40,087 bases of DNA, taken from a virus (lineage: Duplodnaviria; Caudoviricetes). A model generated the notes under the pieces. That model was not told where the DNA came from. It did no database searches and worked only from the letters and a program-made list of their open reading frames with translations. Within the stretch, counting starts at the first letter, position 1; each line of letters starts with the position of its first letter. The position numbers were made by a program, and so were the translations under genes. Shown here one piece after another: positions 6,167 through 18,340 of the stretch. The stretch lies in IMG/VR virus record IMGVR_UViG_3300043171_000118, positions 1 through 40,087 of that record; one strand, 5' to 3'.

Positions 6167-6189
6167 AAAAACCTCTAGTTTCTAATTAT

Positions 6190-6233
6190 TTGCGTATCAA
6201 ACGCGAAAAACTATGAGCATCAAGCCCATAGTT
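6190..6233 (-). terminator. Tandem hairpins with identical UUGAU loops; the first is terminator-like
   Basis: Minus strand AACTATGGGC-TTGAT-GCTCATAGTT-TTT, then GCGT-TTGAT-ACGC, between the lipoprotein gene and terS. Confidence 0.55.
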
Positions 6234-6265
6234 CCAATATAACTAATTAACAAGAAAAATGCTAA

Positions 6266-6626: not shown

Positions 6627-6680
6627 TTATTTATTGGTTTATTTATTGGTTTATTTATTGGTTTATTTATTGGTTTATTT
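6627..6680. repeat. Perfect tandem repeat (TTATTTATTGGT) x4.5
   Basis: Units start at 6627, 6639, 6651 and 6663, with a partial unit at 6675. Confidence 0.95.
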
Positions 6681-7277
6681 TTCCAGTGTTGTTTTGATTT
6701 TGGTGAGTTCTCTTGATACTGTATTTACGTGAATCTGAGCAGGTACAGTATTGAACACTGACAATTTTATGTGTTTGCTCAATAACTTTTCAAGATTGGT
6801 AACTATCCCCACAGCCTCTTTCAGTCTTGGGTCTGACTGTGTTTTATGGAGTAGCCTTGTATTTACAATCATGCCGACAATCATAGATTCAAGCATTTCA
6901 AAACGCTCTTCCAATATAAAGCTAGGCGCTACTCTTGGTTTATAAGCTGTAGCCGCAATGGACTCTTTCACAATCTTTCTTAACTCAACATCCCCTCCCT
7001 CGCTCGCACTGGGTCGGGTGTTCCATGCTTTAAGGTCTACACCATAATCACCAAATACCATGATACAGCTTTCGTCACTACACCCTACTCTTGGTTGGTC
7101 AAATTCTGTAAACACGTCCGCCTCTGCTCCACAAATAGGGCAATATTTCGCTTCGTAGCCTTTTGGTTTTTCCTTGTTCTCGTTAGTCATTGACTCATCC
7201 CTGTAGGTATTACAATGTTCGCATTTTAATTCACTATCCTCTACTGAGCCACAGTGTATACATTTCTCGTTAGTCAT
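6675..7277 (-). CDS. Chimeric protein: Zn ribbon plus Lar-like (restriction alleviation) zinc module
   Basis: CIHCG...CEHC then YCPICGAEA...C...C...AWNTR, the Lar family pattern. Confidence 0.6.
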   Translation of the reverse strand: MTNEKCIHCGSVEDSELKCEHCNTYRDESMTNENKEKPKGYEAKYCPICGAEADVFTEFDQPRVGCSDESCIMVFGDYGVDLKAWNTRPSASEGGDVELRKIVKESIAATAYKPRVAPSFILEERFEMLESMIVGMIVNTRLLHKTQSDPRLKEAVGIVTNLEKLLSKHIKLSVFNTVPAQIHVNTVSRELTKIKTTLEK

Positions 7278-7668: not shown

Positions 7669-8613
7669 CTAAGCATTGTCAAATAACTCCATAAAATCTA
7701 GCTGGTTTGTATTTTCTTCAGCGCTGCAAAAACCGTTACACTCCTTGTATATTGGTTCATGTCTCCCATCAATAGTATCTACTGTCGGTATCTCTGGAAA
7801 CATAATATTAAATCTTAGAAAGCATTTACTTTTAGAATATGGAATACCAGTTTTTTTACTTATATCCCATTTTGTAACTATTCTACCTTTTTTAATGTCT
7901 TGAGTGTATTTGAATTTATCACCATATTTTTCTTCAAAACTTCCAGTAGGGTCATAAATGTCACCTTGCTTGTGTAATACAACAACAGGCTCTCCTTTTA
8001 ATTCACTTAAATCATGTTCCCTCTGTGCCATTCGGTTATATTTTGCAAAATCATCTCTTCCGATTTTTTGCCAATACCCCGCTCCACCTTGAGTACAGCC
8101 AGTATTAAAACAATTATTATTATTGTAGCCGAACCTATAAACTCTTGGCAACTCAATTCCTTGTTTTTCTAAAACTTCAAATGATCTATCTTTTGTTATT
8201 TCAGCTTCAATTAACGGAAAGTGAGCGGCAAGCCCCTGATTTTTTTTCCAACTTTCAGCCCTGTTAATTTCCTTTTTACTATACTCAAACCCAAAAACAT
8301 GAGCGGAAATATTTTTATCTTTACAATATAATTGTCTTGCAATCGCCTTAAGCTCCTTTGAACATATAGCGCCTGTAGCATTTGATAATGATTTAAAATG
8401 CCACCATACTTCATCAATTGAACTCCACCTTAGGTGTTTGAATAACTCAATCTCCACGCCATACCATTTTTCACAATCAGCTTTGAACCTATAAGTATCT
8501 TCATCCTCGTTCATTGTATCAAGCATAACAAGATGAACATCTTCATACATATCAAGTGCCATTTTACAGGCAATTGCAGAGGTTACTCCACCTGACCACC
8601 AAGCTATTATCAT
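7669..8613 (-). CDS. PAPS reductase-like / PP-loop adenine nucleotide alpha-hydrolase family protein
   Basis: PP-loop IAWWSGGVTSA near the likely start at 8613; CSKELK, FPLIE and NNNC..GC..GG.GYW motifs; C-terminal ECNGFC. Confidence 0.75.
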   Translation of the reverse strand: MIIAWWSGGVTSAIACKMALDMYEDVHLVMLDTMNEDEDTYRFKADCEKWYGVEIELFKHLRWSSIDEVWWHFKSLSNATGAICSKELKAIARQLYCKDKNISAHVFGFEYSKKEINRAESWKKNQGLAAHFPLIEAEITKDRSFEVLEKQGIELPRVYRFGYNNNNCFNTGCTQGGAGYWQKIGRDDFAKYNRMAQREHDLSELKGEPVVVLHKQGDIYDPTGSFEEKYGDKFKYTQDIKKGRIVTKWDISKKTGIPYSKSKCFLRFNIMFPEIPTVDTIDGRHEPIYKECNGFCSAEENTNQLDFMELFDNA

Positions 8614-9191: not shown

Positions 9192-9483
9192 TTGGTAGCT
9201 CCTTAGCTTCGATGCCTTTATAATGCTCTGGAAAATCTTTAAACCACTCTTCTAACTCCCCTGCTCCAATACCATCATATTCATAGAAATCTTGCGGAGT
9301 TTTTGTAAGAACTTTTTTACACCAATCACAATAATAACATGTAATAACTGTACCATCCTCAAAAGTGGTTACTCTTTCAACTGTTGATGCATAAGGTATC
9401 GTATCACAACAACCCCAACACATATGAACTTTGCGTGTTTTGACTTTCTTTGAAAATGTATTACTCACTCTCACCACCTCCAT
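9184..9483 (-). CDS. Zinc-binding hypothetical protein (start possibly GTG 9468)
   Basis: KTRKVHMCWGC...CDWC motifs. Confidence 0.65.
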   Translation of the reverse strand: MEVVRVSNTFSKKVKTRKVHMCWGCCDTIPYASTVERVTTFEDGTVITCYYCDWCKKVLTKTPQDFYEYDGIGAGELEEWFKDFPEHYKGIEAKELPSE

Positions 9484-10018
9484 TAAATTTATGCATACAC
9501 CTCAAGCTCACCCCCTCAACCTCATGACCTGCGAAGTGCTTGCAAGACTCATAATTTACACCACCAATGAACACCGCCTCTCCTTCACGCTTTGAGCAAT
9601 AAGTAGAAAAATCACGGAAGTCAGTATATTTTTTATTTGGCCTCAACTCATACTCCACAATATCATACTCAGCAACGGGGGCAGGTGGTTCGGTGGGCCT
9701 AGATAATACTTTTATCAAGGCTTGCATATACCTGACCACATCATCGGCAGGCCTATTGCATAGCGTCTTCAATAGTACTCCAATCTCTTTTTTGATATAT
9801 CTGTAATCATAATTAACTACATCTTGACACACCTGATCCTTATCATCTTCCTCAAACAGGCTCTTGATTTCTGGGTGGTTGATGAGGTCGTCACGCATAC
9901 ACTCAAATTCACCGCTTTCTAAACCGCAATGATGGTGATTTTCATCTAGTATGTCTTTGTGCTTATCAAACATTTCGTCAAGTATCTCTATCATTCGTTC
10001 TGATGTGATTTTACTCAT
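9461..10018 (-). CDS. Tandem paralogue A, modular Cys-rich protein
   Basis: Shares MSKITxERMxEIL, NHPEIK, EPPAPVAEY and FAGHEVEG..RC.HKFN blocks with 10015-10578. Confidence 0.75.
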   Translation of the reverse strand: MSKITSERMIEILDEMFDKHKDILDENHHHCGLESGEFECMRDDLINHPEIKSLFEEDDKDQVCQDVVNYDYRYIKKEIGVLLKTLCNRPADDVVRYMQALIKVLSRPTEPPAPVAEYDIVEYELRPNKKYTDFRDFSTYCSKREGEAVFIGGVNYESCKHFAGHEVEGVSLRCMHKFNGGGESE

Positions 10019-10578
10019 CCCTCGCCTCCTTCATTAAATTTATGCTTACACCGTATACTCTTCCCCTCAACCTCATGACCTGCGAAGTTTTGTTTGCCAT
10101 TGGTTTTGCAATGTAATTCACAAAACATACAACCTACAGCGCAGTCTCCAATATATTCACACACCGGATCGCCAGTTTCTAGCGCCGTCTGCTGAACCTC
10201 AAATATCTCATACTCAGCAACGGGGGCAGGTGGTTCTATCGTTTTGCTGACGTCGGTCAAGAGTTCGGTAGGCCATATTAAGGGCGCCCCACAATTACCC
10301 ATGCCACAAGCTACATTATCTTTACACAATGAAAACTCACCACAAACAGGGCATCTATATTTATTAAGAGTGCTATCGTACTGATCTAAATCTACCTTGT
10401 TGTAAACGTCTGAATACAAACAATGTTCTACTTCTTCACACTCAAGCAGCCCTTTGATTTCGGGGTGGTTGACAATAGTACCCGTTACAGCATCACAGTC
10501 GTATGAGTCTAATACGGTATCATCTCTCAGTATTGCGCTTAGTATCTCTCGCATTCGTTCTGCAGTAATCTTACTCAT
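10015..10578 (-). CDS. Tandem paralogue B, modular Cys-rich protein
   Basis: Same blocks as paralogue A plus an internal CPVCG...C...CG ribbon. Confidence 0.75.
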   Translation of the reverse strand: MSKITAERMREILSAILRDDTVLDSYDCDAVTGTIVNHPEIKGLLECEEVEHCLYSDVYNKVDLDQYDSTLNKYRCPVCGEFSLCKDNVACGMGNCGAPLIWPTELLTDVSKTIEPPAPVAEYEIFEVQQTALETGDPVCEYIGDCAVGCMFCELHCKTNGKQNFAGHEVEGKSIRCKHKFNEGGEG

Positions 10579-10820
10579 GATTTCACCCCCATATACTTAT
10601 TCTTGAGCCAGTACTCGAATAGCTTTTTGCCTTCACCATTCCCAACATTAAATAAACATATTGAGCACTTCAACTCTTGCCGACAATCTGCTTTATGATT
10701 TGTACATCCTGAGCCTCGATTTTGCGTCAACTCCTTATGCAGCAGGTCTACTTTAGCCGCTCCGTACATATTCGCAGGAACCCGCTTCTCCCTTAACTTC
10801 TTTTCCATGGATTTGTTCAT
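10575..10820 (-). CDS. Hypothetical Cys-containing protein
   Basis: Coupled ORF with GAGG RBS. Confidence 0.6.
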   Translation of the reverse strand: MNKSMEKKLREKRVPANMYGAAKVDLLHKELTQNRGSGCTNHKADCRQELKCSICLFNVGNGEGKKLFEYWLKNKYMGVKS

Positions 10821-11146
10821 TAGTCTACCTCGCTATTATAAATAGGTATACTGTGTTTCTCTCTTTCTGCATCTGTTGGAGGTCTCTCAAAGTCGCAATC
10901 AGAGCAAGACATATGAGTCGCCCATTTTGGTATCGTTCTACTTGGAGTTAATTTGTGTTCACCATCATTTAAGCAATCAGCCTTTCTGCCATCGTATGAA
11001 AACATTATTGTCGTGAAGAAAACAAAGTTTTTATCACATCCTCCGCATACTTCTTCATGAGCCTTATCCTCTTCATAGGCAAAGCCATCATCATGACACA
11101 CGTCCTGTTGGTGTCCACAATAAGGACATTCAATATCTTTACTCAT
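10820..11146 (-). CDS. Zn-ribbon hypothetical protein
   Basis: ECPYCG...CGGC and C...H...CSDC motifs. Confidence 0.7.
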   Translation of the reverse strand: MSKDIECPYCGHQQDVCHDDGFAYEEDKAHEEVCGGCDKNFVFFTTIMFSYDGRKADCLNDGEHKLTPSRTIPKWATHMSCSDCDFERPPTDAEREKHSIPIYNSEVD

Positions 11147-11232
11147 AATTTACCAGTTCCAAAAATAGACGCACCGCTGAACTGGTAGGGAAAGCGTGAT
11201 CTTAGTCCAAAGCGTCTATTATAAAATTTCAT
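11143..11232 (-). CDS. Possible 29-aa leader peptide (MKFYNRRFGLRSRFPYQFSGASIFGTGKL)
   Basis: Runs through the structured RNA; its TGA overlaps the ATG of 10820-11146. Confidence 0.35.
   Translation of the reverse strand: MKFYNRRFGLRSRFPYQFSGASIFGTGKL
11164..11220 (-). ncRNA. Putative C4/CI-like antisense structured RNA 1
   Basis: 9-bp closing stem AATAGACGC/GCGTCTATT; inner hairpin CGCT-[TTCCCTACCAGTTC]-AGCG with loop complementary to GAACTGGTA sites within 11238-11247 and 11150-11159. Confidence 0.65.
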
Positions 11233-11254
11233 TTGAATTACCAGTTCGTTTTTA

Positions 11255-11283
11255 AATCTACTATACATTTGAAATTATTGCAA
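11255..11283 (-). promoter_or_regulatory. sigma70-like promoter
   Basis: TTGCAA-17 bp-TAGATT. Confidence 0.6.
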
Positions 11284-11412
11284 GCTATTTTTTGCAACCC
11301 CAATATAAACCAACAACCCAACCCCAGCAAGAAAGGCCGCCCCGACAATGACAACTGTTCTAAATGCCGCTCGTAGTAGTTCTGGTGCGGCTTGTGAATT
11401 ATTATTTTTCAC
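11275..11412 (-). CDS. Small single-pass membrane protein (45 aa)
   Basis: GTG start; hydrophobic VVIVGAAFLAGVGLLVYIGV; read manually. Confidence 0.45.
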   Translation of the reverse strand: MKNNNSQAAPELLRAAFRTVVIVGAAFLAGVGLLVYIGVAKNSLQ

Positions 11413-11413
11413 T

Positions 11414-11773
11414 CTATTCATCCTTTAGCTCAGGGTTCTGATGTATATTGCCTACAATGTGCTCAACATCGTCACTGTTTCCTGTTTTATAAGCGTCCCA
11501 GATGTCGTAACCAGAATCATCTACTATACAATTGCCATGGCCAGCTATATAAACAACATCACCTCCATAAATCGGGATGTTGTTTTTATTTTCTAACCCT
11601 ATGTAACGGCCTATTGTACCCTCATCAACTTCAATAAAACTACTATCTGATCCAAATGTTTCACCATCTTCAAGTATTGTCATTGCACCTGACCCGTACC
11701 ACCACCTCCTAACAGGAACGCCATATACCCACTTGCCTTCATTTGTTAATCCTCTAAATTTTATATCACTCAT
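11414..11773 (-). CDS. YopX family protein
   Basis: IKFRG....WVYG, TIGRYIGLENKN..IYGGDV and VGNIHQNPEL motifs. Confidence 0.85.
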   Translation of the reverse strand: MSDIKFRGLTNEGKWVYGVPVRRWWYGSGAMTILEDGETFGSDSSFIEVDEGTIGRYIGLENKNNIPIYGGDVVYIAGHGNCIVDDSGYDIWDAYKTGNSDDVEHIVGNIHQNPELKDE

Positions 11774-13060: not shown

Positions 13061-13105
13061 ATCCTCATTCCTTCCCCTCACCTATCTGGTTATTGTTGTA
13101 TTCTG

Positions 13106-13528
13106 CTATAAATCGTTTATTCTCTTCGGTTGATTCTTTTCGTTGGCAATTCGGTTTATGTTGTTTATCTTTATCGCTATTTTCTCAGCGACATAGTTTT
13201 TTTCTTTTCCGAAATGCCCCTCAATTCCAAGTGGACAATCCTCAAAGAGCTCAACGTGATCATGTAATACATCGCTAATTGCCTTTATCATCTTCTCTTT
13301 ACGCACTTCATTCACGGCCTCACTTGATTTGCGTGTGTTCTGTTGTTCAATCATTTTTTCTTTATTTGTACTGTGATGCTGTGTAAATTTATTACGAATA
13401 AAACACCCTATGTAATGACCATTTACAGTGTAACTTTCACATATTAGCGTCCCTTCTTTTGCTGGGTGTGTTATGGCACATAGCGGGGCTCCACAATAAG
13501 GGCAATCCTTTAATTTCTCTTCACTCAT
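13106..13528 (-). CDS. Lar-like zinc-ribbon protein with C-terminal extension
   Basis: LKDCPYCG...NTR pattern. Confidence 0.55.
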   Translation of the reverse strand: MSEEKLKDCPYCGAPLCAITHPAKEGTLICESYTVNGHYIGCFIRNKFTQHHSTNKEKMIEQQNTRKSSEAVNEVRKEKMIKAISDVLHDHVELFEDCPLGIEGHFGKEKNYVAEKIAIKINNINRIANEKNQPKRINDL

Positions 13529-13737: not shown

Positions 13738-13779
13738 ACTATTCCTTTCCCTCACCTATCTGGTTATTGTTGTATTCTG

Positions 13780-14301
13780 CTATAAATCGTTTATTCTCTT
13801 CTTCAAATCATCAAGCTCTTTTTTGTACATTTCAGCTTTATTTCTCCATTTTATGATATTCTTTTTAAGTGTGTATATTCGCTTAACGCCCAGTCTATTG
13901 AATAAGAATATTTCATCTTTGGTTAGCTTTGCGGCATCCTTGCTTGTTACAGGGTTTTTAACGCAGTAAACTCCACCATCTTCACGGACAAAAAGCAATC
14001 CAGCTCTATCTGGAATCATATACAATTCTGTTTCTTTGCATATTAAATTTTCTGGAACTGCAAAATAAAAGTCTTTAATTCTGAAATCTTCATGTGTGTG
14101 CTTTTTCTTTTTCTCATTTTTCAAATCAGCTCTAGATATTTTTATTTCTATTTCCGTCATATAACCAGCATTGGTAACGACAAGCAAATCACACTCATGT
14201 ATACAGAATCCATGATTTATATTTGGTACTATTGATTTTTGAGTAAAATCAAAATATCTCATTAAAGCAACTTCAAGCTCTATAGTAGTTTTGTAATTCA
14301 T
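13780..14301 (-). CDS. MmcB-like PD-(D/E)XK nuclease-fold protein
   Basis: ECDLLVV...EIEIKISRADLK...FYFAVP...AGLL. Confidence 0.7.
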   Translation of the reverse strand: MNYKTTIELEVALMRYFDFTQKSIVPNINHGFCIHECDLLVVTNAGYMTEIEIKISRADLKNEKKKKHTHEDFRIKDFYFAVPENLICKETELYMIPDRAGLLFVREDGGVYCVKNPVTSKDAAKLTKDEIFLFNRLGVKRIYTLKKNIIKWRNKAEMYKKELDDLKKRINDL

Positions 14302-15086
14302 TATTTAAACACTCCCATTTCTTCCATTTCTTTGACTTTTGCGGCATCTCTAAGCCTTCTTTCTTCAACCGTTGACTCTTTATCGGGGTTAACGTGAATA
14401 GAGGGCTTGACATCGCTCTTACTGGAATTAAAGTTACTGTTAGCCCATCTTGAAAGCCTTAGCTGTAAACTCCAAGTTTTTTCAGACTCAAAACGCATTT
14501 TGCTGTTAGATTTATTCGGCTCTCTCCAATAGTCGTAGAAATCTCTTATAGTTTCTTTTGAGTATTCAGAAATAAAAACTTTTAAGGATTCATAAAAAGC
14601 GAGCTCACGAGCCAATAACTTCTCTTCTTTACTATTCTCTTCTGTTCTCTCCTCTCCTTTACTCTCCTCTCCTTTACTCTCCTCTGCTTGATTTTGCTTA
14701 GCATTTGCTTCCGTTTTGCTAGGCTTTTGCTTAGCATTTGCTTTAGCTTTGCCACCTTTTCGGCCAAATTCGACTCTTTTGGCCTTTATTTCATCGAGCT
14801 TATTCATTCTATCAGCCAATGATTTGGAGAAAAACTTGTCACCATCAATGGCAAAAAGAGAGAAATCCTCTACAACAGACTTTAAGACTTTTTCATCAGC
14901 CCTAGCGCTAAATGCTAATCTCTTGTAATTTGTTTCTAATTGGTATTCATCGGCAGATGCCAATAATTCTATCAGATACCAGAAAACACCATAACCCAAT
15001 AAACCATGAGACATTAATAGATCGACTATTTTCTCATCGTTATGTGCGTTAAAATCGTGTTTAAAATAATATGTGTGCTTTGCCAT
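14301..15086 (-). CDS. Replication initiator (DUF4373 / Lin1244-like N-terminal domain)
   Basis: YFKHDFNAHNDEKI..L....G..GYGVFWYLIELL; low-complexity linker; C-terminal FYDYW.E...KMRFE.EKTW....RL.RW. Confidence 0.8.
   Translation of the reverse strand: MAKHTYYFKHDFNAHNDEKIVDLLMSHGLLGYGVFWYLIELLASADEYQLETNYKRLAFSARADEKVLKSVVEDFSLFAIDGDKFFSKSLADRMNKLDEIKAKRVEFGRKGGKAKANAKQKPSKTEANAKQNQAEESKGEESKGEERTEENSKEEKLLARELAFYESLKVFISEYSKETIRDFYDYWREPNKSNSKMRFESEKTWSLQLRLSRWANSNFNSSKSDVKPSIHVNPDKESTVEERRLRDAAKVKEMEEMGVFK
14647..14753. promoter_or_regulatory. Putative replication origin (iterons) inside the initiator gene
   Basis: NTTTGC(T/C) every 11 bp at 14692-14747, including a 19-bp exact repeat; adjacent 15-bp tandem ACTCTCCTCTCCTTT. 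Confidence 0.55.
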
Positions 15087-17515: not shown

Positions 17516-18060
17516 TTTGACTCTCCTTTAAATTTCCACTTATACCCAGCGTGACTAGTATATCTATTGTAGCAACAATTTGAAATGCTAGATTGTCTAA
17601 ATCCGCCCCTATCTGCCTCGCCCATTGATTTCCACTCTTTTATAAAGCTACCATCCATATCCATTTGAATCACTTTTTTTGATCCAAACCCGTTTCTCCT
17701 GATTTTAACACTGCGAGAAATTCCAGTTCCATGATTAGCGTTTTCTTTAGCTGTTACCCATTCAAGATTTTCAACCCTATTGTCTGTCTTTATTTCGTTA
17801 ATATGGTTAACTTGTGGCTTGTTTTCTTGGTTTGGTATAAAAGCCATTGCCACTAGTCTGTGTGCTCTAAATTGGTTTTTAATGCGGCTTTTTGATAGGT
17901 TCACACTAAGATATCCGTTGCTTTTAAATATGCTCATTTGCTTGGTGTTTTTTTCTCTACGGTTAAAGCACAAACATCTAATTCCTCCAATATTAGATGC
18001 TTGGTATAGGCCCTCAAATGAAGGTATATCCACCCATATCTCCCCATCTGAAGCACTCAT
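17512..18060 (-). CDS. NUMOD4-HNH-NUMOD1 homing endonuclease
   Basis: EIWVDIPSFEGLYQASN, HRLVA.AFIPN, VNHINEIKTDNRVENLEW and C-terminal NUMOD1-like helix. Confidence 0.9.
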   Translation of the reverse strand: MSASDGEIWVDIPSFEGLYQASNIGGIRCLCFNRREKNTKQMSIFKSNGYLSVNLSKSRIKNQFRAHRLVAMAFIPNQENKPQVNHINEIKTDNRVENLEWVTAKENANHGTGISRSVKIRRNGFGSKKVIQMDMDGSFIKEWKSMGEADRGGFRQSSISNCCYNRYTSHAGYKWKFKGESK

Positions 18061-18290
18061 TTTGTAATACCCTCCGCTATCTCTATTAAGTTTCTTGTTC
18101 CTTCTGGCTTAGTCGCCCATCCTTCTTTAATGAATTTTGCAAAAGCTATTCTAGATGTGTTTTCCTTTAATTGCTTCTTAAGACATTCACCTATTGTTAA
18201 TGTTTTTCTCTGCCATAGCATAGACCAGCAAGTTTTCTCTGTGTATCCGCTAACCTGCGCTTGAATGTATTTATTTGTTTTATTAGACAT
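18057..18290 (-). CDS. First gene of the leftward operon; small basic protein, possibly a regulator
   Basis: AGGAGG RBS directly behind the promoter. Confidence 0.6.
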   Translation of the reverse strand: MSNKTNKYIQAQVSGYTEKTCWSMLWQRKTLTIGECLKKQLKENTSRIAFAKFIKEGWATKPEGTRNLIEIAEGITK

Positions 18291-18311: not shown

Positions 18312-18340
18312 AGTATAATTTAAGGGATTTTAGTTGTCAA
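18312..18340 (-). promoter_or_regulatory. Leftward early sigma70-like promoter
   Basis: TTGACA-17 bp-TATACT. Confidence 0.8.

Follow-up and report, generated by a model that had tools for sequence, protein, structure and literature searches.

The stretch of DNA analysed here (the window; 40,087 nt) is a complete phage contig with a 126-nt terminal repeat, and the five sequencing runs listed as containing its DNA, none of them from RNA, are labelled as marine sediment metagenome. Its ORFs encode terminase, portal, capsid and tape-measure proteins as well as Sak4, Gam and a replication initiator. Neither an integrase nor a CI-type repressor was found among the 73 window ORFs scanned, the sole regulator-like ORF being Arc/CopG-like. 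A query of the ESM Atlas with a candidate repressor (18057–18290) returned no usable match, and protein homologues gave no usable taxon for the host. The phage uses Shine–Dalgarno sequences, which reach −5 kcal/mol or better at 42 of 65 starts chosen by hand. A promoter scan places divergent strong promoters at 18340 (−) and 18396 (+). The leftward arm runs from the replication initiator (14301–15086) through small accessory genes to terS, terL and portal, and the element described here lies in this arm, 5.1 kb ahead of terS. We also note two tandem paralogous genes with shared ends (9461–10018 and 10015–10578) and a 61-nt repeat of 98% identity (13067–13127 and 13741–13801) that spans gene junctions, both of which we regard as signs of cassette-like shuffling of the accessory genes. 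A 12-nt tandem repeat, TTATTTATTGGT, is present in about four copies between two genes (6627–6686).

The element consists of a putative promoter, a short target word, a folded domain with the complementary antisense guide in a hairpin loop, and a second copy of the target in front of the first downstream gene, with a leader ORF running through the RNA (Table 1). Every feature named in the earlier note is present at its place on the minus strand. The repeated 10-mer that it reported, GAACTGGTAA, does occur twice (11247–11238 and 11159–11150, minus strand), but the complementarity to the guide extends over nine nucleotides and not ten.

Table 1. Features of the element and their positions in the window
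Feature	Position	Strand	Remarks
−35 hexamer TTGCAA	11278..11283	−	Overlaps last codons of upstream 48-aa ORF (11275–11421)
−10 hexamer TAGATT	11255..11260	−	17 nt after −35, 7 nt before target 1
Target 1, GAACTGGTA	11239..11247	−	Predicted first nine transcript bases; ends 6 nt before leader ATG
Leader ORF, 29 codons (41 from ATG 11268)	11143..11232	−	Spans whole RNA; TGA overlaps next ATG
Folded domain, 57 nt, closed by P1	11164..11220	−	P1, weak P2, P3
P1 outer stem, AATAGACGC/GCGTCTATT	11220–11212 with 11172–11164	−	9 Watson–Crick pairs
P2, weak small hairpin	about 11211–11197	−	
P3 hairpin, CGCT-TTCCCTACCAGTTC-AGCG	11175..11196	−	Antisense in loop
Antisense guide, TACCAGTTC	11179..11187	−	Complementary to both targets; duplex about −14 kcal/mol
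U5 run	11161..11165	−	At and after P1 base; possible pause, weak terminator or 3′ end
Target 2, GAACTGGTA	11151..11159	−	Ends 4 nt before ATG 11146; contains weak Shine–Dalgarno of downstream gene
First downstream gene, 108 aa	10820..11146	−	Cys-rich, zinc-ribbon-like; not a fixed part of the element

Within the 40-kb window this is the sole triplet of word, complement and word of eight or nine letters within 200–260 nt. A 9-mer triplet appeared anywhere in three of 60 order-3 Markov simulations of the window, so that the evidence from a single genome amounts to no more than about p = 0.05 and the argument depends on the homologues. The genomes G000, G001 and G002 each contain one 9-mer triplet and no further copy of the 9-mer. 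Neither target is more than 100 nt from the guide. The triplet scans yielded no second shared word indicative of a second antisense element. Remote targets were rejected because no start codon outside the element has a 7-mer core nearby.

Six further loci were found by pattern scans: L039 in phage G001, L236 in phage G002, and L210, L211, L212 and L214 on metagenome contigs. Since L211, L212 and L214 are nearly identical in the RNA, these amount to five lineages including the window. In all seven loci the targets stand on both sides of the RNA in the same transcript. Partial copies are also present on contigs of two other runs (X2 and X4). A loose triplet pattern on viral contigs (57 of 64 parts covered) gave 119 stretches; a stricter pattern applied to all of these returned three rows, one of them genuine (L039). 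The metagenome triplet scan gave five matches, four of them genuine; the fifth, L213 (1127–1245), was rejected, its contig bearing a long repeat array, direct and inverted, that includes GAACTGGTAA. A target-free promoter and leader pattern gave two genuine matches among 24, a leader and loop pattern two among 11, both already known, and a promoter 19-mer one among 36 (G001). None of 28 matches to an exact P1 stem pattern on viral contigs was the element, none of three matches in a GTDB scan was genuine, so that no host can be taken from it, and a search for relatives by capsid protein gave none in nine. Sequence model R1, run on 24 virus records, returned only its three training members and one A+T-rich chance match, and the 41 weak hits among GenBank phages included no meaningful DNA match. 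The element is described nowhere in the literature searched, outside which lay the primary P1 and P4 papers; non-Rfam motifs in the supplement of PMC5737381 could bear on its novelty.

In G000, G001 and G002, accessory modules that are related to one another accompany terminase, portal and capsid modules that differ. G000 is long-tailed and G002 is P22-like and short-tailed. The latter carries P22-like head-closure and DNA-ejection genes, against a tape-measure gene in the window, and the cassette is therefore common to different virion types. In G001 an RtcB RNA ligase gene adjoins a MazG-like gene (L248, 327–1484).

The candidate promoter of the window matches the σ70 consensus at eight of 12 positions, one short of the scan threshold of nine, and is not among the promoters listed by the scan. 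Its assignment is nevertheless supported by comparison, as the pattern TTG[CG]AA, 17 nt, TAnRTT, 7 nt, GAACTG recurs in all seven loci: the spacer letters diverge, whereas the hexamers and the 7-nt separation from target 1 stay constant. L236, and L039 when it was found a second time, were the only loci whose search pattern included the promoter spacing; the triplet by itself retrieved the four metagenome loci. The fixed spacing implies that target 1 begins at the predicted +1, and the base preceding it varies among the loci. On the X2 contig the −35 and −10 hexamers read TTGCAT and TATTAT; among the changes listed for this contig, ten are in the hexamers and spacer and one is in the transcribed part. 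Both targets end 0–6 nt before an ATG, and target 2 stays with the element when the downstream gene is swapped. An ORF of 43–48 aa encoding a single hydrophobic helix ends inside the −35 box in the window (11275–11421, minus strand) and in L039 (1841–1972); the genes that end at or near this hexamer in the other loci are different ones.

The locus in G002 was found with a pattern that left the target unspecified. There both targets read GAACTGACA and the loop reads TGTCAGTTC, compared with GAACTGGTA, TACCAGTTC and GAACTGGTA elsewhere. Two positions have thus been altered in step at three sites, which represents one event in one lineage. This three-way covariation, together with covariation in the stems, sustains the proposal that the target–antisense–target arrangement acts at the RNA level, and we consider it very probable that the element works by RNA pairing of some kind. 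Three DNA sites could also change together with a protein, as they would if the 9-mers were operators for a protein repressor and the stem a separate terminator-like element. A protein bound at site 1, which lies at +1, would block the promoter, and G002 and the window encode, respectively, an HTH repressor-like and an Arc/CopG-like protein. However, the word lacks palindromic symmetry, its middle copy is in every case inverted and placed in a hairpin loop with covarying stems, the match starts exactly at +1, both sense copies abut start codons and no copies are found at the divergent early promoters. An operator function is, in our view, most improbable.

The outer stem P1 comprises 7–10 bp, all Watson–Crick, and closes 54–61 nt in each of the five lineages with a different sequence in each. 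Besides the stem of the window, these are AAACAAGCTC/GAGCTTGTTT in L039, AATAGACAC/GTGTCTATT in L211, TAAGCCC/GGGCTTA in L210 and TTAGACCA/TGGTCTAA in L236. Such a stem was reached by 1, 1, 0, 18 and 3 of 400 shuffles in the five lineages; automatic alignments misregister P1. P3 is found in all five lineages as a stem of 3–5 bp with a pyrimidine-rich loop of 13–17 nt enclosing the guide, and L210 shows a compensatory change from CGCT/AGCG to CAAAA/TTTTG. On a MAFFT alignment 70% of the P3 cells are paired and six of 500 shuffles reach the covariation score, in a control that ignores relatedness. P2 is only 2–4 bp long, variable and inconsistently placed by the script. Its loop was considered as a second guide and rejected, the loops being different from one another and having no partner near the targets. 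Five T residues are present at or after the base of P1 in four of the five lineages and absent in L210; the U run was not called by the terminator scan.

Fold z-scores are weak (−0.5 for 113 nt and −2.0 for 66 nt). In the predicted fold of the window the last five antisense bases have unpaired probabilities of 0.09–0.17 and opening them costs 1.9 kcal/mol, and in several lineages a part of the guide is likewise concealed when sequences are folded singly. The description of the domain as exposing the antisense is therefore contradicted by the window's own predicted fold, which hides five of the nine guide bases, and the loop model derives from the comparison across lineages. ViennaRNA favours an alternative helix over the P3-loop fold.

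In the six loci tested, three cis folds (P1 closed, guide paired with target 1 and guide paired with target 2) lie within about 1–5 kcal/mol of each other, and a purely cis-acting switch would consequently explain the covariation equally well. In such a switch the guide would pair either with target 1, leaving the ribosome site free, or with target 2, masking it; leader translation or polymerase speed would choose between these states and no free small RNA would be made. The linker of 17–29 nt between target 1 and P1 could reach the loop in cis, and the closeness of both targets to the guide, with no remote target in the three genomes, is in keeping with this. Against it, a free RNA would require a self-contained domain of the kind seen here, closed by a strongly covarying P1 and with the guide held in a loop. 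Furthermore, the base of P1 is separated from target 2 by only 4–7 nt, which by our estimate is too short for the P3 loop to reach while P1 is closed, so that pairing needs a second molecule or the opening of P1. We regard a switch confined to cis as rather unlikely, though deserving serious attention.

The earlier note described a leader ORF of 29 codons whose TGA overlaps the ATG of 10820–11146. This is correct for the window (ATGA), but strict coupling of this type is present in only three of the seven loci; in the others the frame stops 4 or 13 nt short of the next gene, extends 8 nt into it, or is fused to it in frame. The frame of the leader ATG is free of stops through the RNA in all five lineages, with the guide in three different frames, and the other two frames contain stops in nine of ten cases. 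The chance of an open frame is 0.18–0.32 per lineage, odds which are not independent because the lineages are related. No conservation of the peptide beyond MKF was detected across the lineages, and AATGAAATTT of the leader is invariant in the six loci aligned. An open frame that is kept without conservation of the peptide or of the overlap supports translation through the structure as a selected feature, and on these comparisons the leader is probably translated.

The suggestion that neither start has a normal Shine–Dalgarno sequence applies to the leader start (−2.8 kcal/mol). The downstream start, on the other hand, has a weak one inside target 2 (−4.8 kcal/mol, compared with a median of −5.9 kcal/mol for the 65 hand-picked starts, 23 of which are weaker than −5 kcal/mol), and AGGA or AAGGA is present there in four of six homologous loci. 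We note an additional in-frame ATG within the promoter, in the spacer or −10 hexamer, in both the window (11143–11268, minus strand) and G001; in the window it is ATG 11268, inside the spacer, and gives 41 aa. In L211, L212 and L214, read by hand, the ATG in the promoter region opens a 9-codon ORF, the TGA of which overlaps the leader ATG. Transcripts that read through from the early promoter could enter the leader by way of a promoter-internal ATG.

Seven types of first downstream gene are found in nine loci. The gene behind target 2 encodes a zinc-ribbon-like protein in the window, a homologue of window 10575–10820 in G001, YopX in G002, MK[DE]FII proteins in L211, L212 and L214, and a repeat protein in L210; at the loose end of X2, read by hand, it is a homologue of another G001 gene, and in X4 it is window gene 10015–10578 (10579 joined to 11148). 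As the first gene varies, the element would gate an operon position and not one particular gene, and the arrangement of these loci suggests that the ribosome site belongs to the cassette and that genes are swapped at its ATG. The 108-aa product of 10820–11146 gave only weak PHROG and Pfam matches. A link between the element and this gene was considered and rejected, none of its 17 homologues having the element upstream.

Accessory genes do run from the element toward terS, as had been proposed (11146 to 6266, with the terS start 5081 nt from the predicted +1), but the idea that its control extends to terS is not supported. A promoter match of 11/12 at 7682 and a structure with a promoter-like site before terS make control of this reach doubtful in the window. 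The structure in question (6180–6250, minus strand, just upstream of terS) is strong, with a z-score of −3.98 that was reached by none of 200 shuffles, and is formed by two tandem hairpins with the same UUGAU loop, a U run after the first and TTAGCA-18-TATATT before them. No twin-loop counterpart was found in G001 or G002, and it is possibly a late promoter, a terminator or a protein-binding site. In G002 the accessory genes overlap directly into terS.

The gene content also bears on P4-like RNA immunity or superinfection exclusion, in which a resident RNA would silence the operon of an incoming phage and G002 would represent another immunity group. The specificity variant of G002 recalls the heteroimmunity of P1 and P7 (PMC5320573), and the lack of a CI-type repressor among the 73 window ORFs also speaks for such a role. 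However, no integrase was found among those 73 ORFs, nor among the 52 of 70 G001 ORFs and 46 of 51 G002 ORFs scanned. The replication initiator, moreover, is upstream of the element and has no target, and the genes behind the element are variable accessory genes, none of which is annotated as an antirepressor or killer. We judge an immunity role to be improbable.

We would give an even chance to the reading in which the promoter and short leader with its complementary loop form a delayed off-switch of the accessory operon in the manner of P1 c4 and P4 CI. In the early phase the operon would be on: ribosomes would initiate at the leader ATG (15 nt from the 5′ end), open the domain as they pass and carry translation over into the first gene. 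Transcripts that escape translation would fold into P1–P2–P3, and stopping or trimming at the U run would leave a stable RNA of 57–87 nt. With accumulation of this RNA, trans pairing of its loop would occlude both targets: at target 1 initiation of the leader would be blocked and a larger share of transcripts would fold, and at target 2 the first gene would be blocked, with polarity on the genes behind it. The operon would then be off. Leader translation and folding of the domain would be mutually exclusive, and target 1 would provide positive feedback.

Both targets are translation-start regions, and guide binding should therefore block initiation at each. The sign of the effect is not guaranteed, since the IsrK small RNA of Gifsy-1 activates in trans (PMC4825925). 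By analogy, the full transcript would be locked, with the guide on target 2 or target 1, and a free short RNA would unlock leader translation and coupling. Target 1 would form the 5′ end of a terminated short RNA, which could pair with the guide of a long transcript, and the coupled upstream ORF that IsrK activates is likewise conserved in DNA and not in peptide (PMC4825925). Yet the guide covers both ribosome-binding regions, where binding should block, and in IsrK the coupled ORF lies behind the small RNA and the pairing extends over about 30 nt. Activation in trans thus appears highly unlikely.

Among known systems the element is closest to c4 and CI in its proposed way of working, but it falls outside their family. 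No match was found among 4227 Rfam families, isrK included, and at E up to 10 the C4 covariance model (RF01695) gave none in three genomes (the window and two relatives). What the earlier note drew as a likeness to P4 seqA/seqB/seqC thus applies to the way of working but not to family membership, there being no Rfam C4 or IsrK match. The c4 and CI RNAs act through a loop that pairs with targets on both sides of the RNA, of which the downstream one is at a ribosome-binding site (PMC5320573, PMC4825925, PMC12197685).

The c4 RNA of P1/P7 immI (RF01695; targets c4-a1b1) is, like the element, a same-strand antisense RNA inside its own operon leader (PMC5320573, PMC12197685, PMC2864571). It also shares with the element targets on either side, a lower target that overlaps the ribosome-binding site and the existence of specificity variants. 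The three stems P1, P2 and P3 of c4 compare with P1 and P3 supported in five of five lineages of the element and a P2 of 2–4 bp. There are clear differences: c4 is about 77 nt long and the element 57 nt; c4 uses an a′/b′ pair and bipartite targets, whereas the element forms one duplex of 9–10 nt per target; the a1b1 target is structured, whereas target 1 is a bare 5′ end; and the element has a reading frame through the RNA and no antirepressor behind it. A GGW motif at the 5′ base of P1 is the RNase P site of c4 (PMC5320573). P1 of the element begins with AAT, AAA, AAT, TAA and TTA in the five lineages, and neither a GGW start nor a 3′ CCA suggests release by RNase P.

In P4 immunity the order of seqA, CI RNA (seqB) and seqC is, as in the element, target, antisense and target downstream of one promoter (PMC4825925 and PMC3632133). 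The CI RNA derives from an untranslated primary transcript and ends transcription of replication genes (PMC4825925), whereas the element has a leader that is probably translated and does not cover the replication genes. Its counterpart of seqA is reduced to 9 nt and lacks an IsrK-like structure. The eta frame of P4 runs through cI and starts from an upstream promoter. The Gifsy-1 isrK-orf45-anrP system resembles the element in being a dual small and messenger RNA with alternative folds, and in having an upstream ORF with conserved DNA and a variable peptide that is AUGA-coupled to the next gene (PMC4825925). It differs in that IsrK is an activator with about 30 nt of pairing, and in that the coupled ORF comes after the small RNA and does not overlap it. 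In the leader-coupled replication control of plasmid R1 (CopA/CopT) an antisense RNA blocks a gene through translational coupling (PMC5415839), as proposed here for the element. The element, in contrast, has a 9-nt guide within the same transcript. CopA is cis-encoded on the opposite strand and fully complementary.

To our knowledge, RNA-only control of the c4/CI type has been characterised almost only in the enterobacterial systems P1, P7, P4 and Gifsy-1. In our view the element is a real and well-conserved RNA control cassette, best read as a compact, single-guide, probably translated analogue of P1 c4 and P4 CI and not as a member of the Rfam C4 family. It keeps the c4/CI logic with unrelated sequence, one guide, about 100 nt in total and a frame through the regulator, and it sits in phages where the classic role of an immunity gate is improbable. 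More tentatively, and as a possibility that we would stop short of calling probable, it may belong to a separately evolved, minimal class of RNA timer in phages, with one molecule serving as both regulator and messenger and a 9-nt guide silencing the start of the frame that passes through it. This would give a portable, protein-free and self-reinforcing switch in long- and short-tailed phages in which no integrase was found. If so, translation would destroy the regulator and the regulator would block that translation. The guides of G000/G001 and of G002 form a natural orthogonal pair that makes action in cis or in trans directly testable, and the element could serve as a compact synthetic regulator. 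Since it is invisible to Rfam, such switches are probably undercounted.
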